From IMG/VR virus record IMGVR_UViG_2563366980_000004: a stretch of 45,423 nt of DNA. One strand, given 5' to 3'. Source of the DNA: a virus (taxonomy: Duplodnaviria > Heunggongvirae > Uroviricota > Caudoviricetes). The notes beneath the pieces are model-generated. The model was not told the origin of the DNA. It did no database searches and saw only the letters and a program-made list of their open reading frames with translations. The stretch's first letter is position 1. Every line of letters begins with the position of its first letter. A program made the position numbers and the translations under genes. This document shows positions 386-41,561 of the stretch, piece by piece.

Positions 386-1600
386 ATGGCGCTGTCTGAT
401 GCGTGGTTGCGTTCAGTCGTTGGAAAGGAACGTGATAAGGTTTTGGTTAAATCCGATCGTGATGGTCTGTCTGTCAGAGTATCACCGAAAGGTCGCGTAG
501 TGTTCCAATATCGTTATCAATGGGCAGGGAAAGGTGAGCGTCTTGATATCGGAACTTACCCGGCAACTGGATTAAAAGAGGCCAGAGAAGAAGTTATTCG
601 TCTCCGTGGTGAACTCGAGTCAAACCGTAATCCACGATTGGTCAAGCAGGCTGAAAAACGAAAAGCTACTGAAGCCATGACGGTAGAGTCTGTGATCCGT
701 GCCTGGTATGAAGCATATTGTGTAAAAAATAAAAAAGGTTCTGAACAGATACTCCGCTCGTTTGAGCTGCACCTGTTCTCTAAAATCGGGAATATCCCTC
801 ACGATGCAGCTACATTGCATGATTGGTTAGAAGTCCTGGAGCCTCTTAGCACTAAGACTCCAGCAATAGCAGACCGATTGCTAATTAACGCAAAGCAGGC
901 CCATGTCTGGGCGTATAAGAGAAAGCTCATTGAAACTCGCCCGCTGTCGGATATCACGGGTAAAGATATGGATATCCGTAAAGGTCAGAAGAAACGGTTT
1001 CTGACACATGATGAAATTAAAATCCTTTATGCTGCGATCGATGGTTCTCGAATGGTTCCTAAATACCGGGCCTTCATTAAACTATTGCTTCATTTTGGTT
1101 GCCGTAGTTCAGAGCTAATTACCGCCAGGGTGGACGATTTTGATTTCATTAATAAAGTATGGACTGTACCACCAGAACGACATAAGACTGGGGAGATAAC
1201 AGGCGAACCGCTAAAGCGGCCCATTATTGAACCGGTTGAAGAGCTTATAAAGTACGCTATTTCTATGAACAATGGTTCCGATATGCTTTTTACTAAGGAA
1301 GGAAGCAGGGAACCCGTTGGTCGGACATCATTGCAGTCGCTGCCTTACAATTTAATGCAGTATGCATGGCGGCGTTTGGGTTATCAATTCCCTCATTGGT
1401 CTCTTCATGATTTGAGGCGAACAGCACGAACAAACTTTTCTGATCTTACTGCGCCTCATATTGCAGAAATTATGCTAGGTCATAAACTGCCAGGGGTATG
1501 GCAAGTTTATGACAAGAGCGATTATCTAGAAGAACAGCGTAAAGCCTACCAAGCGTGGTGGGAGAGGGTTGAATCGATCGTTACTTGTACTGGTTCATAA
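386..1600 (+). CDS. int: Tyrosine-type site-specific integrase
   Basis: 404-aa ORF with AAGGTGAG RBS; N-terminal arm-binding-like region and C-terminal catalytic region with the conserved HxLRRT-like signature (HDLRRTART) and a tyrosine near the C-terminus (VYDKSDY); first phage gene next to the junction. Confidence 0.9.
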   Translation: MALSDAWLRSVVGKERDKVLVKSDRDGLSVRVSPKGRVVFQYRYQWAGKGERLDIGTYPATGLKEAREEVIRLRGELESNRNPRLVKQAEKRKATEAMTVESVIRAWYEAYCVKNKKGSEQILRSFELHLFSKIGNIPHDAATLHDWLEVLEPLSTKTPAIADRLLINAKQAHVWAYKRKLIETRPLSDITGKDMDIRKGQKKRFLTHDEIKILYAAIDGSRMVPKYRAFIKLLLHFGCRSSELITARVDDFDFINKVWTVPPERHKTGEITGEPLKRPIIEPVEELIKYAISMNNGSDMLFTKEGSREPVGRTSLQSLPYNLMQYAWRRLGYQFPHWSLHDLRRTARTNFSDLTAPHIAEIMLGHKLPGVWQVYDKSDYLEEQRKAYQAWWERVESIVTCTGS

Positions 1601-1808
1601 TCGAAATGATATTTTGCATATCTAGTACGCAATAAAATATGACAGTCCGCTTTGAGCTGCGGGCATTGCTAGCAGCATTTTCTGTGAAGTAACGGGAGGT
1701 TGTTCAATATTGCCTCTGAAAAGGATAACCATTCAATTCTTCATTGAAAAAACTCATCGAAGATTTTATGGAGGGATGCAATTTATTTTGAGCGAATTTA
1801 ATTCATCA

Positions 1809-1893
1809 CTAATGATCCTACATAGTTATTGCCTTGCTCACTAAAAGGTGAGATTTCATTAGCTCACCAACAATAATTAAATAGGATCATTAG
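1809..1893. repeat. Perfect 12-bp inverted repeat (CTAATGATCCTA / TAGGATCATTAG) flanking about 60 bp that holds a nested CTCAC/GTGAG hairpin
   Basis: Read directly in the AT-rich spacer between the int stop and the 3' end of the minus-strand moron. Confidence 0.35.
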
Positions 1894-1975
1894 CACTTTA
1901 TATCAGGCTATAATTTTAATAAATTACGTTATTTAAAGCCATTTTCTCCATCAAGTAATATCTTCATGCTAATGT

Positions 1976-2971
1976 TCACTTTTGTTTTAGCTTTATAATT
2001 TCTGATATCATAGTTGTTAGCTTTGAATCGGAAAGATTCTGCAGTCTATCTTTCTCAATAGAAACTGTAGTTTGTCCCTTTTCTAATATGAAATTTCTTT
2101 CTGTTTTCATTAAAAGCATTGCCAACTCTTTTATCATGTCTTCGTTCTTGAATTCTTGAGCATATTTTAGAGACATGACTTTCATCTCAATATTTGTGAT
2201 TTCATTCTGAAAATATTTGATTTCGTCAAACCCATTTTTATAGAGGCGTAGAAAAAAATAAGCAAACAATTCAACGACTATTACAAATGATAATTTAGGA
2301 AGGTGATGAATAAAAAATCCCACCCCATCCACAATGTCTGGCGCGCTGTAAAGAAAGTAAGCAAGAGATAATATCCCTGTCAACGCAATTATTGTTCCGA
2401 TTGCAAGGTTAAGCCCACCTCGTCGATTGAGTCTGTCTATTTCAGACTCTAATCTTAGAACCATATCAGTATGGAGTTTATGTAAGCTGTAGCTCTTCTT
2501 AAAATCAGATATATCGCTTTTTAGGCTGTTATCTGCCAGAAGTATTGTGTTTCCAATTATTCTCTTTTTTGCATCGGATATTAACTTCTCCCTTTCACTC
2601 TCTGTTATTTCAATGGAAACTCCGGAAGATGTTCTATTTTCAATTTCGCTCAATTTTTTATTTAGCTTAACTATTTCTTTGTGAAAAATATATCTCGTGT
2701 TTTCAATATCTCTACCACCAATTCCTTTGTTTAAATAAGAAGTCATTATTGCGACAAAAGAACCAACAAAAACTAGGGCAGTTGCTGTAAATAAAATAAA
2801 CTCTTTCTTCTCGTTTATTAAATTTACTATTGATGATGATTCCAGTTGAATGTCTGAAAGCGAAGTTTTAAGCACAAAATTCATCACAGGTGAAACCATG
2901 ATTATGGCAACAACTATAATAAATCCATATTTTTTTATAATGTAAATAAGAAGGCCAAATAAATCTTTCAT
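1976..2971 (-). CDS. Hypothetical integral membrane protein with four predicted TM helices and coiled-coil segments (AT-rich moron)
   Basis: 338-aa ORF (TTG at 2992; first ATG at 2971); hydrophobic segments at roughly residues 15-37, 66-87, 195-217 and 232-250 separated by K/E-rich heptad-like regions; markedly AT-rich relative to flanking phage genes; no family recognised. Confidence 0.7.
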   Translation of the reverse strand: MKDLFGLLIYIIKKYGFIIVVAIIMVSPVMNFVLKTSLSDIQLESSSIVNLINEKKEFILFTATALVFVGSFVAIMTSYLNKGIGGRDIENTRYIFHKEIVKLNKKLSEIENRTSSGVSIEITESEREKLISDAKKRIIGNTILLADNSLKSDISDFKKSYSLHKLHTDMVLRLESEIDRLNRRGGLNLAIGTIIALTGILSLAYFLYSAPDIVDGVGFFIHHLPKLSFVIVVELFAYFFLRLYKNGFDEIKYFQNEITNIEMKVMSLKYAQEFKNEDMIKELAMLLMKTERNFILEKGQTTVSIEKDRLQNLSDSKLTTMISEIIKLKQK

Positions 2972-3344
2972 TTTATCTTTTACCTGAAACAAATTTTTAT
3001 TAAAGTAACTTAAAAAATGATTGATTGCAAGATTTACTATTGCTGTTCATTTTAAATTACTATACCCCCCTATGCATACATATAATCCCATAGGGGAGAA
3101 GTTTATTAGTTAGTTAAGTTGAAGGCTATACCTACAATCTAATTCCCCTCCAACCTAACATGCACAAGCGTCAACCTATCGGTAGTGATAATTTTATGAG
3201 GATACGTATAAACAAGATTCTGAGTTGCTCCTATTCATTAAGACAATACATTTTGTAACTTCTGCTTTTGGCTCAGGGTGGGGTGTGAGATTAGGTTTGG
3301 CTCTGTGCCATAGATGTGTCAGTTCACATCTGAGCTAATACACA

Positions 3345-3539
3345 TTACTCAATCACTCCAGCAAACCTATATATCTTGTGTGACGCCCATTTATTTGGGC
3401 ATGATTTAATATCAGGATCTGGAAAATCAGGCCTGTATTTCTGGCCAGTTCTCCGGTTTACGCTGTTCCAGCGAAGAACTGTCGATACTGAAACGCCACA
3501 GAAGTCGGCGACTTGTTTAGTTGTCATTAAGTTGTTCAT
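3345..3539 (-). CDS. AlpA/excisionase-like small DNA-binding protein
   Basis: 64 aa; TKQVADFCGVSVSTVLRW helix-turn-helix followed by an FPxP motif, as in AlpA/Xis-family proteins; sits at the head of the leftward operon facing int. Confidence 0.7.
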   Translation of the reverse strand: MNNLMTTKQVADFCGVSVSTVLRWNSVNRRTGQKYRPDFPDPDIKSCPNKWASHKIYRFAGVIE

Positions 3540-4333
3540 TACTTCACCTCCTGCGGCGGTTCCGGTAGCGGCATCCAGTGGGTTACTTTCGATGCCGGTT
3601 CTTCCACATCGTCAGTAACTGCCCACCATTTGTTTCTCGACCAATCGTAATACCCTTCGAAGGTATCGCACTCAGTCCAGCCGTAAGACTTCCCCCAACA
3701 CCAAACATACTGTTTATCGTTCGGCATTCGCTCACTACAGCTTATCCAACCATCCGGAGTTACCGGAGAGTTGCCCGATAGCGCATTACGCAATCGCTCC
3801 AGCTTCACGTATTCCTGAACCCTGTTTCCGTCGCATGCCTGAAGCCATTGCGCAGCCTTTTGCGCATCAGTGTGAAAGGCACAAGTGCGACCGTCATCAA
3901 ATTGCATTTCGTAGAGGTCAGCAACTTGTTCAAACTGCGTGTGTTGTGACTTGTAAGTTTGGCTTACAGGTTCGGCACCATGAAGCATGGCGGCGCGGCA
4001 GGCGTTCCAGCCATCAACATAATCAAACGTATTGCTATCGTCTGGCTCGATTTCATCTGGCACTATCAGCACCGGCTGGACGGTGACATTGGCAAAGGCA
4101 GCACGCAACCCGGTTTTAATTTCTTCGATTTCATCAGAGCCAAGCGATGAGTCAGAAAGCGCATGGTGGAATGCGTAAGCCATGTCGTCGTTTACTGCCA
4201 CCGGCTCTGCTTCCAGTGATGCCAGCGCGATAAGCGCCAGCTCACGAATTTCACCGCCGTCTATATCGTCAATGTCATCGCGGCCAGAAATGTTAGCCAG
4301 CCATTGCAGTCGCTCTTTGGAAATAGTGATCAT
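3539..4333 (-). CDS. Phage protein with C-terminal DUF551 domain
   Basis: 264 aa; C-terminal W-rich region ending VTHWMPLPEPP is characteristic of DUF551; N-terminal domain is paralogous to ORF 4697..5053. Confidence 0.8.
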   Translation of the reverse strand: MITISKERLQWLANISGRDDIDDIDGGEIRELALIALASLEAEPVAVNDDMAYAFHHALSDSSLGSDEIEEIKTGLRAAFANVTVQPVLIVPDEIEPDDSNTFDYVDGWNACRAAMLHGAEPVSQTYKSQHTQFEQVADLYEMQFDDGRTCAFHTDAQKAAQWLQACDGNRVQEYVKLERLRNALSGNSPVTPDGWISCSERMPNDKQYVWCWGKSYGWTECDTFEGYYDWSRNKWWAVTDDVEEPASKVTHWMPLPEPPQEVK

Positions 4334-5415: not shown

Positions 5416-5942
5416 TTGCGTAACTCCGATAACTCGTTAAAACGTTCCATAAACATCCCATAGGCATGGCCTGGCGACAGTGGAATAACTTTGAACATCT
5501 CTGTTGCCGGGATACCTTCCAGTACAGGCCAGAAAGAGCCATCATCAAGCCCGAGATCGCGGCGTTCGGTTGCCAGCATGATGAGATCGGCATATTTCAC
5601 AGGCGTGCTCATAACCGGGGGTAACCCGTATTTCTCACGGATTACGGCGTCTATTTTTTCTTCCATCCGTTTATAGTCAGGAAGAAGGCGTTTCAGTGGC
5701 GCGGGGATGTCCTGGCAATACGCTTCTGTTGCATCATGCATTAACGCTTCAAAAGCAAATTCCTGCGGCACCAGCTGGCTGCAAAGCACCGCATGCTGGG
5801 CGACGCTGTAGAAGTGTGAAAGATGTCCTGCAAAGCGACAGATATTTGAAAGGGAAACCGCGATATCGTTAATCACGATGTCGTCTTTATTTATCCTGTC
5901 ATAATAAAAATGCTTCCCGGAAAAAGTTTTAATAAATGACAT
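5406..5942 (-). CDS. HD-domain phosphohydrolase (YfdR-like)
   Basis: Start taken at MSFIKT (ORF-track frame arithmetic); HD-type metal-binding residues (H...HD...D) in NICRFAGH...EALMHDATEAY. Confidence 0.8.
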   Translation of the reverse strand: MSFIKTFSGKHFYYDRINKDDIVINDIAVSLSNICRFAGHLSHFYSVAQHAVLCSQLVPQEFAFEALMHDATEAYCQDIPAPLKRLLPDYKRMEEKIDAVIREKYGLPPVMSTPVKYADLIMLATERRDLGLDDGSFWPVLEGIPATEMFKVIPLSPGHAYGMFMERFNELSELRKCA

Positions 5943-6069
5943 TTTGTTCTCCACGTATATGTGCTGCACCACGCTGAATTCTGGTAAAAGGAAGCCCTCA
6001 CCATCCGGTGATTATTGAGTTAATTACGTTTCCATAAATGCCCCCGCAGGGGCATTTGCAGTAATGAAA

Positions 6070-6894
6070 TCAGGCGGTGAAAGTACCAATAAAGGTTTCT
6101 ACTTTGCTGTCCTTGAATTTCTCAACAAGCAGATCACGAAATTCGTTAGCCATTTCCTCCTGCACTGCTTCCAGCTGAATAATGCGCAGAACCAGTACAG
6201 GACGATCGCCAGTGAGAATGCTGAGGCGTAATTTAAACGGACGTTCTTTCAGGCCTTCAAACGGAACGCATTTAAATTCAAATGCCACTGGCATAATGTC
6301 TTTGGTTTTCGCTTCGACAGACTCCATCAGGGAGCGTTTGCCGCTGAAGTCATTGTCTTCAAAATCAGCGGTCTGGTTTGCTTCAATCGTGATTTTACGG
6401 ACTGCCGCAGCTGCTTTTGTTGCCTGAATAGCGTCACCATTAGCATCAAAGCCCACAAGGTAGTCGGCCCAGTCTTCAATCCATTCTGCCAGTGACTTCT
6501 GGGAGTTACGCTCGCCATTAACAGACAACAGAGCAGAGAACGGTGCTGTCTTTTTCAGTTTGAGAGTGGCGGTGTTATCTGCGTGACCTGGTTCATCAAT
6601 AGTACCCAGATTAAGCACACTGACAGCACGCATATTATCAGCATCGATAAAGCAGCGGGTGCCTTCATCTGCAAGATCTTTAGAATAACGGGTAAAGTCA
6701 TCGATGCTGGCAGTGGAAAGCGCACCACGGAAACGGAAGCGATTTAAATTAAATTTTTCCAGATCATGAATGCGGAAATTCTCAGGCAATGCCACAGCAT
6801 CGGCACCAATCTTACTGATAATTTCATTAACACCCTGAGCAGAAATAAGGGCATGGATTTGATTAATTGCGGTTGCGTCTAAGTTCTGAGACAT
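6070..6894 (-). CDS. DUF2303 family phage protein (YfdQ-like)
   Basis: 274 aa, same length and general sequence character as E. coli prophage YfdQ; conserved early-left position. Confidence 0.75.
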
Positions 6895-6959
6895 AATAAG
6901 TCCTCACTATATAAAGATATTCAGTGATGAGATAAATAATCAGTTTATTAAAAACGATA

Positions 6960-7322
6960 TTAACGACCAGCTGCGCGGAGTTTTCCGTCAGGTTCACCGG
7001 CAAGAGTCAGTAATTGTCCCTGGTCTTCCTGCAGAATAGTCAGGCGACCACCGCGATTGACATACATCGGCGTTTCGGTGGTGTCTTCTTCGGAAATTTT
7101 CCCGCGGTTAGTTGGGCGAACATATGAGAGTTTGTGTTTGATTTTCACACGGTTCTCATCAAACGGTTCGATTTCCAGATTGAGTGAGACCTTCCCTTTG
7201 GTTTTCGTGTTCATCACACCGGAAGCGACTTCACTTAGAACTGCGCCGATTTTTGTTTCAAATACGCCGCCGTCCAGCTCCCCGATAAATGCCTGCACAT
7301 CAGTACTGCGTTCACTAGCCAT
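6960..7322 (-). CDS. Hypothetical early-left phage protein (YfdP-like)
   Basis: Start taken at internal MASERSTD (ATG 7322); the upstream in-frame extension to 7508 looks non-coding (C/H/R-rich and overlaps a 10-bp inverted repeat). Confidence 0.6.
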   Translation of the reverse strand: MASERSTDVQAFIGELDGGVFETKIGAVLSEVASGVMNTKTKGKVSLNLEIEPFDENRVKIKHKLSYVRPTNRGKISEEDTTETPMYVNRGGRLTILQEDQGQLLTLAGEPDGKLRAAGR

Positions 7323-7950
7323 TTTGCTGCTCCTCATCATATCGACCCTGCAATGTCGGTTAGTTTCTCCACAAAACAGAGAAGAACACCTGCGGTGGTA
7401 GCCGCCCGGATGGATTGGGTTATGAGCCCGTCGTCCGATGATGTTCTTCTCTGTTTTGTAAAAAGAGCGGTACCAGCCGGAAGCAAGTGTACAAACTGGT
7501 ACCGCCAAAGCAGTGGCTGTTGTGGTGACCGGTGCTGATCTCCGGCTTGCGGTTATTTCAGACTCTCACGGGCATTTAATTGCCCCGCCGAACAGCTCTT
7601 TTCCGCAATAGCTGCAATGTCTTTCGCGCATCAGCCTGCGCATTCACCACAACGCTGAGAGCACTTAGCCAGTTACGGCACCACACTTTGTCGCGGTTCC
7701 ATAAATGCCCTCATCGTTGCACCCTGGTCTCTTCCCAGGCGTCAAACCGAATCGCCACGCTGGTTAGGCGTCTTATCAGCATCATCATTGACTTGCACAT
7801 TCCGGCTACCTGGTTTGTTTGCCCGAGCAAGGAGTGGATTGTCCCCTTTAACGTCCCCAGACCGCTAACGACGCATGTGCCATACGCCGTGTTACAACCA
7901 AATTTTGTTAGTACCTTGTTTGTTTGTCTGGAAAGAAAGATAAAATGAAG

Positions 7951-39175: not shown

Positions 39176-39185
39176 TGGAGTGGAT

Positions 39186-41561
39186 ATGGCAGCAGTAAAA
39201 ATCTCAGGTGTGCTGAAAGATGGTGCGGGAAAACCAATACAGAACTGCACTATTCAACTGAAGGCAAAGCGTAACAGCACCACGGTACTGGTGAACACGG
39301 TGGCCTCTGAAAATCCGGATGAAGCCGGGCGTTACAGCATGGATGTTGAGTATGGCCAGTACAGCGTCATCCTGCTGGTTGAAGGTTTTCCGCCTTCACA
39401 TGCCGGGACCATTACCGTCTATGAAGGCTCCAGACCAGGTACGCTGAATGATTTTCTCGGTGCCATGACGGAAGATGATGTCATGCCGGAGGCATTGCGT
39501 CGTTTTGAGGAAATGGTGGAAGAAGCGGCACGCAACGCTGAAGCCGCCTCTCAGAGCGCAGCGGCGGCAAAGAAATCCGAAACTGCAGCGGCATCATCGA
39601 AGAACGCGGCGAAAACCTCAGAAACGAATGCAGCTAATAGTGCACAGGCGGCAGCGACCTCACAGACTGCATCAGCAAACTCCGCGACAGCAGCCAAAAA
39701 ATCAGAAACCAACGCGAAAAATAGCGAGACAGCCGCAAAGACGAGCGAAACCAACGCAAAGTCCAGCCAGACGGCAGCGAAGACCAGCGAAACGAATGCT
39801 AAAGCCAGTGAAACTGCGGCAAAAAACAGCCAGGTTGCAGCAGCCCAAAGCGAGAGCGCGGCAGCCGGTTCTGCGACTTCAGCAGCTGGATCAGCAACTG
39901 CTGCGGCTAACAGCCAGAAAGCTGCGAAGACGAGTGAAACTAACGCAAAGTCCAGCCAGACGGCAGCGAAGACCAGCGAAACGAATGCCAAAGCCAGTGA
40001 AACTGCGGCGAAAAGCAGTCAGGATGCAGCGGCCCAAAGCGAGAGTGCCGCAGCCAGTTCTGCAAGTGAGGCGGCGGCTTCTGCTACTGCATCAGCCAAC
40101 AGTCAAAAAGCTGCAAAAACCAGTGAAACCAACGCAAAGGCGAGCGAGACTACGGCGGCCAACTCGGCGAAAGCATCCGCTGCAAGCCAGACCGCTGCAA
40201 AAGCAAGTGAAGACGCAGCCAGAGAGTATGCAAGCCAGGCAGCAGATCCGTATAAATATGTCTTACAGCCGCTGCCTGATGTGTGGATACCGTTTAACGA
40301 TTCACTGGATATGATTACGGGCTTTTCGCCATCATATAAAAAGATTGTTATTGGTGACGACGAAATAACGATGCCTGGCGACAAGATTGTTAAGTTTAAA
40401 CGTGCATCGAAAGCAACCTATATTAACAAATCTGGTGTGCTGACAGAGGCTGCCATTGATGAGCCTCGATTTGAACGTGATGGCCTGCTTATTGAGGGGA
40501 AAAGAACGAACTACATGCTCAATTCGGAAAACCCTGCCAGTTGGGGGCGATCGTCAAATATGGATGTTCCCGAAACCGGGACGGATAGTTTTGGTTTTAC
40601 CTATGGAAAGTTTGTCTGTAACGATTCTCTGATTGGGCAAACCTCAGCCATTAATATGGCATCAATTGCTGCAACAAAGTCAGTTGATGTCTCAGGCGAT
40701 AATAAATACGTGACAACCTCATGTCGTTTTAAAACAGAACTGCAGGTAAGGTTGCGTATCCGATTTGATAAATATGACGGTAGCGCAACAACTTTTCTTG
40801 GTGATGCGTATATTGATACACAAACGCTTGAAATTAATATGACAGGCGGCGCTGCCTCAAGGATTACAGCGAGAGTCAGAAAGGACGAAGCTACCGGATG
40901 GATTTTTGCAGAGGCAACAATTCAGGCAATTGATGGGGAGTTAAAAATAGGTTCTCAGATACAGTATTCTCCTAAGCAGGGCGGGGCAACCGTATCTGGT
41001 GACTATATTTATCTGGCCACCCCACAAGTAGAAAATGGGCCTTGTGTATCATCTTTTATTATATCAGGAACGACGGCGGCGACCCGCGCAAGCGATATAG
41101 TTACAGTTCCCATTAAGAATAATCTTTATAATCTTCCTTTTACGGTTCTTTGTGAGGTACATAAGAACTGGTATAAAACGCCAAATGCAGCGCCGCGTGT
41201 TTTTGACACCGGCGGTCATCAAACCGGAGCGGCTATTATTCTTGGCTTCGGTTCTTCAGCAGATTACGACGGATTTCCTTATTGCGATATTGGAGGAGCT
41301 AACAGACGGGTAAACGAAAACGCATTGCTTGAAAAAATGGTTATGGGGATGCGTGTAAAGTCAGATCAGTCTACGTGCTCAGTAAGTAACGGGCGTATAT
41401 CCAGCGAAACAAAAACCACATGGTCCTGTATTCAGAACACCGCAATTATCCGTATTGGAGGCCAGACTACAGCCGGGTTACGTCATTTATTTGGTCATGT
41501 CAGGAATTTCAGAATATGGCACAAGGCATTGACTGATGCTCAGGTGGGGGAGTCAATCTAA
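39186..41561 (+). CDS. stf: Side tail fibre protein (Stf-like N-terminus, Ala/Ser/Thr-rich repeat shaft, distinct C-terminal domain)
   Basis: N-terminus MAAVKISGVLKDGAGKPIQNCTIQLKAKRNSTTVLVNTVASENPDEAGRYSMDVEYGQYSVIL matches lambda Stf; central KTSETNAKxSxTAAK repeats. Confidence 0.85.
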   Translation: MAAVKISGVLKDGAGKPIQNCTIQLKAKRNSTTVLVNTVASENPDEAGRYSMDVEYGQYSVILLVEGFPPSHAGTITVYEGSRPGTLNDFLGAMTEDDVMPEALRRFEEMVEEAARNAEAASQSAAAAKKSETAAASSKNAAKTSETNAANSAQAAATSQTASANSATAAKKSETNAKNSETAAKTSETNAKSSQTAAKTSETNAKASETAAKNSQVAAAQSESAAAGSATSAAGSATAAANSQKAAKTSETNAKSSQTAAKTSETNAKASETAAKSSQDAAAQSESAAASSASEAAASATASANSQKAAKTSETNAKASETTAANSAKASAASQTAAKASEDAAREYASQAADPYKYVLQPLPDVWIPFNDSLDMITGFSPSYKKIVIGDDEITMPGDKIVKFKRASKATYINKSGVLTEAAIDEPRFERDGLLIEGKRTNYMLNSENPASWGRSSNMDVPETGTDSFGFTYGKFVCNDSLIGQTSAINMASIAATKSVDVSGDNKYVTTSCRFKTELQVRLRIRFDKYDGSATTFLGDAYIDTQTLEINMTGGAASRITARVRKDEATGWIFAEATIQAIDGELKIGSQIQYSPKQGGATVSGDYIYLATPQVENGPCVSSFIISGTTAATRASDIVTVPIKNNLYNLPFTVLCEVHKNWYKTPNAAPRVFDTGGHQTGAAIILGFGSSADYDGFPYCDIGGANRRVNENALLEKMVMGMRVKSDQSTCSVSNGRISSETKTTWSCIQNTAIIRIGGQTTAGLRHLFGHVRNFRIWHKALTDAQVGESI
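39745..40010. repeat. Intragenic direct repeats in stf (a near-identical ~68-bp unit occurring twice about 190 bp apart, plus degenerate copies)
   Basis: ACGCAAAGTCCAGCCAGACGGCAGCGAAGACCAGCGAAACGAATGC(T/C)AAAGCCAGTGAAACTGCGGC occurs at about 39753 and 39942. Confidence 0.5.

Follow-up and report, generated by a model that had tools for sequence, protein, structure and literature searches.

The question raised by this locus is what function is served by a strongly AT-rich gene that separates the integrase (int) and excisionase (xis) genes of a prophage. The gene lies on the minus strand of a 45,423-nucleotide stretch of viral DNA (IMG/VR record IMGVR_UViG_2563366980_000004; hereafter, the window) and encodes a membrane protein of 331 residues. 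The evidence assembled here points to a probable new phage-defence protein of the single-gene kind, carried in a cargo slot of variable content. A preliminary description of the DNA had placed an AT-rich minus-strand gene at the int-xis junction; its GC content is 31.7%, compared with 44.9% in int and 49.8% across the window, and both flanking genes could be matched (Table 1). In a comparison with complete-genome DNA, the window was 100% identical to a prophage of Escherichia coli UTI89 and NU14. The prophage is found directly downstream of yjjG, adjoining a 69-bp gene fragment, at ~4.99 Mb in UTI89; the gene that follows yjjG in E. coli K-12 we take to be prfC. The host element is referred to here as a lambdoid E. 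coli prophage integrated beside yjjG.

Complete E. coli genomes were searched with the region from int to the DUF551 gene in order to find alternative cargo. Prophages at the same site were recovered in which the integrase flanks are ~96–97% identical in DNA and the right flank is the same, with different genes between them: a dGTPase, a hypothetical gene with a CHAT-domain protein, an AIPR family protein, a hypothetical gene with a restriction endonuclease, and an 84% variant of the cargo gene itself. Alignment with four prophages that hold other cargo shows that homology stops 17–57 bp past the int stop codon and returns 53–88 bp beyond the xis stop codon (Table 1).

The slot was then surveyed in 80 IMG/VR prophage contigs with a 98–100% identical integrase protein, and both flanks were located in 78 of them; this set is distinct from the 78 family loci of many phyla considered below. 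The 78 slots hold 19 unrelated cargo types of 1.0–4.15 kb, most of them single genes, with GC contents of 31–43% except for one type at 51%. Type 1 (17 contigs) is full-length Dsr1, type 6 is a dGTPase with HD and HD_assoc domains, and type 3 includes a CHAT protein. Other cargo proteins match BovA (Borvo; two proteins), AbiU, PtuA (Septu), PDC-M01A/B and PDC-S59, with PADLOC E-values from 1e-45 to 1e-247. Every identifiable alternative cargo in the slot is an anti-phage gene. Since relatives fill the slot with varied cargo, much of it known defence genes, the earlier suggestion that the int-xis junction is a hotspot for defence and exclusion genes was correct: the slot is hypervariable and strongly tied to defence. 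The present cassette occupies 3 of the 78 contigs, and its gene is absent, at the DNA and protein level, from 50,697 GenBank phage records, which rules out that the product is a core membrane protein of the phage, shared by every relative.

Several of the other slot genes have no Pfam match, among them a gene of 239 residues present in 10 of the 78 contigs (L134:1896-2612) and genes of 417 (L103:1782-3032), 272 (L120:1760-2575), 183 (L109:1412-1960), 517 (L112:1399-2949) and 377 residues (L168:1395-2525). These are candidates for further defence genes.

The gene appears in the open reading frame (ORF) list as a 338-residue entry (1976–2992, minus strand) with a TTG start. RefSeq uses an ATG at 2971 for its 'hypothetical protein', residues 8–338 of the TTG ORF align to positions 1–331 of the 331 in the profile of PHROG 5157 (E 2.7e-226; function unannotated), and the alignment with two diverged cassette copies holds at this ATG but not at the TTG. 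Because these three sources agree, ATG 2971 is taken as the conserved start; the range of 331–338 residues given in the preliminary description covers both forms, of which the 338-residue TTG extension is not conserved. By a rough estimate from base composition, the chance of a stop-free run of this length at 32% GC is ~1e-12. The cassette region is matched over at least 80% of its length in 54 of 5,426 complete E. coli genomes, and 52 of the best matches are at least 99% identical. The window allele is present in strains of extraintestinal pathogenic E. coli (ExPEC), for example UTI89 and NU14. In one E. coli genome (NZ_CP195442.1) the match falls into two pieces with 1.06 kb extra, and an IS5-like ISEc35 transposase is annotated under it.

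The hydropathy profile of the protein has four Kyte-Doolittle maxima (residues ~14–34, 57–79, 186–208 and 222–244), and the charge pattern is consistent with the four transmembrane (TM) helices that had been predicted. Clusters of Lys and Arg follow TM2 and TM4, and the charged residues of the TM3–TM4 loop are acidic only. Given this distribution of Lys and Arg, both termini are likely to be inside, the two large soluble parts being cytoplasmic (Table 1) and only ~35 residues exposed to the periplasm in the predicted topology. An AlphaFold model calculated with a 75-sequence alignment is all-helical (predicted local distance difference test score 81.8, predicted template modelling score 0.63). 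In this model an 83-residue helix (126–208) runs from the cytoplasm through TM3, and a 59-residue helix (216–274) passes through TM4 and back to the cytoplasm. Two charged segments rich in Lys and Glu had been described as coiled coils. They are confidently helical in AlphaFold models, and in this respect the description stands; their heptad periodicity, however, is not significant (p = 0.06–0.6). The segments look like parts of an intramolecular helical bundle in the models, and a canonical coiled coil is not demonstrated.

Conservation across the family is concentrated in a core of residues 173–262 and 287–306. Invariant positions are R173, E177, G192, G199, P225 (at the start of TM4), K252, Q255, N256, E257, R292, N293, T302 and E306; N188 in TM3 and E234 in the middle of TM4 are nearly invariant. 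The core motifs are a pre-TM3 RLxxE, the glycine-rich TM3, FAYFFLRLYK, a juxtamembrane (E)IKYFQNExTNxE and TERNFxLEKGQTT. Conservation is weak in TM1, TM2 and the first periplasmic loop. Relative to the 84%-identical E. coli allele (locus L096), the ratio of nonsynonymous to synonymous change (dN/dS) is 0.26 overall, with values of 0.57 for residues 1–82, 0.23 for the loop, 0.04 for TM3–TM4 and 0.08 for the C-terminus. The synonymous rate (dS) of the same pair of alleles is alike across these regions (0.25–0.45). The gene is under purifying selection; its product is functional and evolves fast in the N-terminal hairpin, and it is not a mosaic.

The protein belongs to a large family. A word-indexed search returned 1,080 relatives, all named 'hypothetical' except for three automatic names, one of which is MotA/TolQ/ExbB-related. 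A HMMER profile search of 1.84 billion representatives gave 2,811 clusters (50% identity) with E-values up to 1e-3, of which 1,537 have values up to 1e-30. Among the best 150 relatives, lengths are mostly ~280–410 residues, and about ten are shorter (159–265 residues). Hits in genomes come from Gamma-, Beta- and Alphaproteobacteria, Campylobacterota, Bacteroidota, Acidobacteriota, Planctomycetota, Nitrospirota and others. Scans of the protein against Pfam and NCBIfam gave no significant match, and Pfam scans of 22 and 75 family members gave only recurrent weak matches of TM type (DUF2207_C in 19 of 75, MotA_ExbB in 4 of 75). The sole match in PADLOC-DB 2.0.0 was to PDLC00707, a '2TM effector', which is not significant (E 0.0075, 13.5 bits, residues 18–166). 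Searches of PDB sequences with 22- and 75-sequence profiles gave nothing below E 0.02, and Foldseek found no significant structural relative in PDB or BFVD. The statement that the protein could not be assigned to any family therefore holds for Pfam, NCBIfam, PADLOC, PDB sequence profiles, Foldseek and hhalign; the remote-homology and structure check matched only the unannotated PHROG 5157 and no solved structural relative. A local likeness between RLEsEIDRLNRRGG (residues ~170–185, window ~2417–2464) and RLqgEIDRLNRtGG of phage P1 DarA (PDB 9ukm_I) is probably due to chance, since its E-value rose from 0.16 to 1.3 with the larger profile and the region is helical.

To assess whether the protein has a partner, 78 family loci from many phyla were taken with 6 kb on either side, and the ORFs in these regions were clustered all against all. 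No neighbour family was found in more than 3 of the 78 loci, and the tightly coupled downstream genes are mutually unrelated. As no neighbour family recurs across the loci, the protein works alone, without a dedicated partner. Immediate neighbours include OLD, a KAP NTPase, a CAP12-type TIR protein, DUF4411, integrases and transposases, and a tyrosine recombinase lies within 6 kb in 9 of the 78 loci. A Vreelandella homologue directly adjoins kwaA-kwaB. In a Citrobacter prophage the homologue adjoins an AbiJ/Abi_C gene in the interval from DUF968 to the lysis genes, and other classic accessory positions in Enterobacterales prophages are after tail-fibre genes and next to an integrase. A Pantoea homologue is near the gtrABC genes for O-antigen conversion.

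Homologues of 40–41% identity in Kosakonia and Enterobacter (L183/L184 and L185; 7001–7975) lie between the host gene icd and the integrase. In this icd-integrating lambdoid prophage the gene sits outside int and not between int and xis, which gives cargo a second position adjacent to int. In a Pseudomonas integrative island (L005:7647-10827) the family member is preceded by a 98-residue ORF, and two same-strand ORFs (251 and 309 residues; no Pfam match) follow 33 and 4 bp downstream. This arrangement may be an operon specific to the lineage, in contrast to the enterobacterial genes, which are solitary.

The protein lies mostly in the cytoplasm and membrane, its conserved parts are TM3–TM4 and two motifs, it is autonomous and it is sited among defence genes. 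For these reasons a single-protein sensor-effector against phages is the favoured explanation. The status of the gene as defence cargo is well supported by context, and we infer its anti-phage role by association. Whether the one protein would act as both sensor and effector, in the manner of abortive infection or exclusion, we consider evenly balanced. A speculative mechanism can be drawn purely from motif and topology logic. The TM3–TM4 hairpin, with its glycine face, the polar Asn188 and the buried Glu234, would oligomerise into an ion-conducting path, which the juxtamembrane KYFQNExTNxE helix and the TERNFxLEKGQTT motif of the helical bundle would hold shut in uninfected cells. A cue produced by infection would open the path, the membrane potential would collapse and phage development would be halted. 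The protein could conceivably cause other membrane damage upon infection in place of an ion path, as is thought for RexB, SLATT-type and other TM effectors. The fast-evolving TM1–loop–TM2 hairpin may be an anchor or a specificity module. In its most complete form, the proposal makes the protein the founder of a very widespread stand-alone sensor-effector family, an unrecognised single-gene anti-phage system with no solved fold relative, in which the helical bundle would sense a generic infection cue and the Glu234-containing TM3–TM4 hairpin would kill or arrest the cell; we hold this form tentatively, with somewhat more doubt than belief.

Several observations weigh against an anti-phage role or the mechanism outlined for it. 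The protein has no detectable homology to validated defence proteins, the only match being the weak one to the '2TM effector', which falls on the non-conserved N-terminus. Some of the slot cargo types are uncharacterised, and the slot may therefore not serve defence alone. Housekeeping genes account for many of the neighbours of distant family members, so that outside enterobacterial prophages the link to defence islands is modest. The idea of a pore derives from a single buried Glu, one Asn and glycines. In the portion of the supplementary sequences of the 2026 DefensePredictor study that was covered, tested systems included, the family motifs and the searched accessions do not occur (PMC13092281). 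For that portion, their absence shows that the family was not validated in the DefensePredictor study, and is not proof of a non-defence function. From the same source, and likewise for the part covered, the 327-residue DS-19 was considered as a homologue and is unrelated in sequence.

The main rival explanation is non-lethal exclusion at the inner membrane, where T4 Imm and HK97 gp15 act as exclusion proteins. Here the entry of a superinfecting genome or the insertion of ejection proteins would be blocked, with TM1–loop–TM2 recognising phage parts. The product is indeed an inner-membrane protein of a prophage, and residues 1–82, which hold its only part in the periplasm or outer leaflet, undergo ~10-fold faster nonsynonymous change than the remainder of the protein at similar dS, as would fit a conflict with phages. 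The dN/dS of this region is, however, not above 1, and relaxed constraint explains it equally well. Action at the periplasmic face would also not be expected of a protein in which ~80% of the chain and nearly all strongly conserved sites are cytoplasmic or within TM3–TM4, and the occurrence of the family in many phyla and in non-prophage contexts argues for a generic trigger or effector over blocking specific to phages; on this evidence exclusion of the non-lethal kind seems unlikely. A role in the life cycle of the phage itself, in lysis timing, as a holin- or antiholin-like protein, or in the control of induction or excision, would be in keeping with a gene that immediately follows xis and shares its strand, where read-through of the early-left operon could express it at induction. 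Yet the gene is missing from 75 of the 78 prophages with near-identical integrases and from all of the GenBank phage records, is found at unrelated sites elsewhere, both in other prophages and outside prophages, and has its own terminator and promoter-like site, and such a role is highly improbable.

The gene might alternatively encode a lysogenic-conversion or fitness factor that acts independently of phages, through tolerance of envelope stress, ion homeostasis or orphan immunity to a membrane-targeting toxin (a colicin, or a toxin of contact-dependent inhibition or type VI secretion systems). Morons also carry non-defence cargo, and the gtrABC genes near the Pantoea homologue, the housekeeping neighbours of distant homologues and the presence of the window allele in the ExPEC strains would all agree with this. 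It is given a low probability, as all identifiable alternative cargo of the slot is anti-phage and no toxin gene accompanies the family, either in the neighbour clustering of the 78 loci or among the coupled downstream genes. A further explanation is an orphan proton-channel subunit like MotA, TolQ or ExbB (or ZorA), working with host TolR, ExbD or MotB or by itself. A MotA-like topology with very long helices that extend from the membrane into the cytoplasm points in this direction, as do the UniRef name of one homologue ('MotA/TolQ/ExbB proton channel domain-containing'), sub-threshold matches to PF01618 in 4 of 75 members (best E 0.008) and the placement by hhalign of TM3 on the GLFGTVWG segment. 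But the hhalign probability of the 75-sequence profile against E. coli TolQ, ExbB and MotA is 3.4%, neither the window protein nor the homologue with the UniRef name matches PF01618, and no member reaches the Pfam threshold. The Foldseek match to ExbB has an E-value of 0.92 with template modelling scores of 0.16–0.22. No partner gene for MotB, TolR, ExbD or ZorB is conserved in the 78 family loci, and the cassette has no further ORF. Membership of the MotA/ExbB family is not supported, and an orphan channel subunit is improbable.

The cargo gene is carried in a compact, self-contained unit. The cassette has a GC content of 32.7%, and apart from the gene no plausible ORF and no Rfam match was found inside it. 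Many E. coli genomes carry an allele of 73% identity, located at the margin of a different prophage that has sheath and tube genes. Between the L097 copy (5660–7340) and window positions 1621–3291, non-coding sequence is shared at ~77–86% over ~290 nt upstream of the gene and ~330 nt downstream of it, with the same end points. Since the non-coding flanks and the ends match in an unrelated prophage, the 1.65-kb unit moves as a block. No terminal repeats or recombinase were seen at the cassette ends when the window was compared with the L097 copy.

Downstream of the gene, the inverted-repeat element noted in the preliminary description proved to be real and strongly folding: as RNA of the gene strand it has a folding energy of -33.5 kcal/mol (z = -5.1), and it is kept in three cassette copies, where 4 of 30 pairs have changed on both sides with pairing retained. 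Together with the hairpin and T-run that it encloses, it is probably the intrinsic terminator of the cassette. Upstream, the promoter-like block lies ~30 nt from the ATG and is present in all three copies, with TATTTT as the -10 element in the other two; we only infer promoter activity, because a strict consensus promoter scan did not report TTGCAA-17-TACTTT. The upstream hairpin at 3067–3096, which had been thought to help insulate the gene, exists with a perfect 8-bp stem. Its z-score, however, is only -2.0 and the stem is lost in L096 and L097, and it is probably not a functional insulator. The gene shares two features with a moron, an autonomous extra gene of a prophage as defined for lambdoid phages: it is present in some and absent from other near-identical phages (the 3 of 78 contigs given above) and combines its own terminator (1843–1868) with a foreign base composition. 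The view of the cassette as a moron-type unit, with a promoter-like site, one gene and its own terminator, thus appears largely supported by the terminator, the promoter-like site, the foreign GC content and the occurrence of the same block elsewhere, without the upstream hairpin as an insulator.

Table 1. Coordinates of the cargo gene, its cassette and the flanking genes in the window
Feature	Position	Strand	Basis
Variable cargo slot, corresponding to the whole mobile cassette (~1.65 kb); ends fuzzy, homology with four prophages of other cargo breaking at 1617–1657 (left) and resuming at 3257–3292 (right)	1621..3291	.	blastn; copy in L097
Coding sequence, 331-residue four-TM inner-membrane protein (WP_000653746.1, PHROG 5157)	1976..2971	-	ORF list, RefSeq, PHROG, hydropathy, AlphaFold
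Predicted layout, N-terminal part: TM1 ~14–34; variable periplasmic loop 35–56; TM2 57–79; cytoplasmic helical region 80–185 (~105 residues)	within 1976..2971	-	hydropathy, charge
Predicted layout, C-terminal part: TM3 186–208; short periplasmic loop; TM4 222–244; cytoplasmic C-terminal helices 245–331 (~88 residues)	within 1976..2971	-	
Tyrosine integrase, left flank of slot, convergent with cargo gene	386..1600	+	Pfam Phage_integrase 1e-17, Arm-DNA-bind_3, Phage_int_M
Excisionase, 64 residues, helix-turn-helix, right flank of slot	3345..3539	-	phrog_1553, 4.1e-36
Second small hairpin (GCCCGC..GCGGAC, then T-rich), int-proximal cassette end	1645..1664	-	conserved in three copies
Long inverted repeat, arms 1809–1831 and 1871–1893	1809..1893	-	23 nt, 87% complementary
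GC-stem hairpin and T-run inside the repeat (GGTGAG..CTCACC TTTT, gene strand)	1843..1868	-	sequence
Weak Shine-Dalgarno-like AGGT, 10-nt spacer to ATG	2982..2985	-	purine-rich GG kept in other copies
Putative sigma-70 promoter: -35 TTGCAA (3025–3030), 17-nt spacer, -10 TACTTT (3002–3007)	3002..3030	-	found by eye
8-bp perfect hairpin, CCCCTATG N14 CATAGGGG, upstream non-coding region	3067..3096	-	sequence

Other genes of the window differ in part from their annotation elsewhere. The excisionase ORF carries a MerR-family regulator label in a related prophage and is without annotation in RefSeq UTI89. The DUF551 gene (3539–4333, minus strand) is an intact 264-residue ORF in the window and is labelled by RefSeq UTI89 only as a partial pseudogene. 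In the late region, a large ORF at 39180–41561 (plus strand), probably a tail-fibre gene, contains two 189-nt repeats (80% identical) at 39664–40157, inside which tandem units of 21 nt are nested.

Literature searches returned no paper on WP_000653746 or phrog_5157 and none describing an int-xis hotspot at yjjG. The svsR/NC-SV prophage was considered as the same element and rejected, as it is a different prophage, integrated at icd (PMC12803456). If the gene protects against phages, a compact one-gene (~1 kb) defence system would be added to those recognised, and a large multi-phylum family outside Pfam, NCBIfam and PADLOC would have been overlooked everywhere by current defence annotation. 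It would also provide a tractable model in which one membrane protein both senses infection and executes the response. The conserved TM3–TM4 and two cytoplasmic motifs, together with the fast-evolving N-terminal hairpin, are clear targets for mutation. Independently of the cargo gene, the int-xis slot offers a list of candidates, with at least 19 cargo types of which about half are unannotated. Many comparable candidates exist, and the cargo gene stands out by its clean context, its very large unannotated family and its experimental handles.

Defence hotspots of temperate phages and satellites are known from P2, P4 and the int-proximal variable regions of cluster N mycobacteriophages. In these, as in the present prophage, conserved core genes bound a slot of unrelated, AT-rich cargo, mostly of one or two genes, much of which is known defence. 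The slot described here differs in lying between int and xis of a lambdoid prophage in the yjjG/prfC region, and the cargo of the window is no recognised system.

Among individual proteins, lambda RexB is likewise a four-TM inner-membrane protein encoded as accessory cargo of a prophage, and the outcome proposed here, a loss of membrane potential that aborts infection, would be shared. RexB, however, has 144 residues and needs RexA as a sensor, whereas the present protein has 331 residues, of which ~190 are cytoplasmic, and no partner gene. Homology to RexB is not supported (hhalign probability 0.9%; no rexA-like partner). The SLATT and '2TM' effectors of CBASS and Pycsar have a similar TM hairpin flanked by cytoplasmic helices and are predicted to form a lethal pore. 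A relation to them is likewise not supported, as the PDLC00707 match covers the non-conserved N-terminal half and Foldseek gave E-values of 0.7–1.2 for SLATT; there was no SLATT family among the Pfam matches returned or listed, and no nucleotide cyclase or signal-producing gene is linked in the 78 family loci. KwaA of Kiwa is another four-TM defence membrane protein, although it works with KwaB and the present gene is autonomous. Here, too, homology is not supported, with an hhalign probability of 0.2% against the KwaA of locus L006, no KwaA Pfam match and no kwaB partner.

A likeness in architecture remains to the MotA/TolQ/ExbB proteins, including ZorA of Zorya. Hydropathy, charge and the AlphaFold helices agree on a MotA-type topology, which is a resemblance only: the order of the four TM helices is shared, as are a large cytoplasmic insert between TM2 and TM3, long helices that enter the cytoplasm, and a final TM pair that is conserved and contains Pro and polar residues. 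In comparison to ZorA, the present protein is much shorter and is found without ZorB, ZorC and ZorD. The family may be a partner-less and very distant offshoot of the MotA/ExbB architecture.

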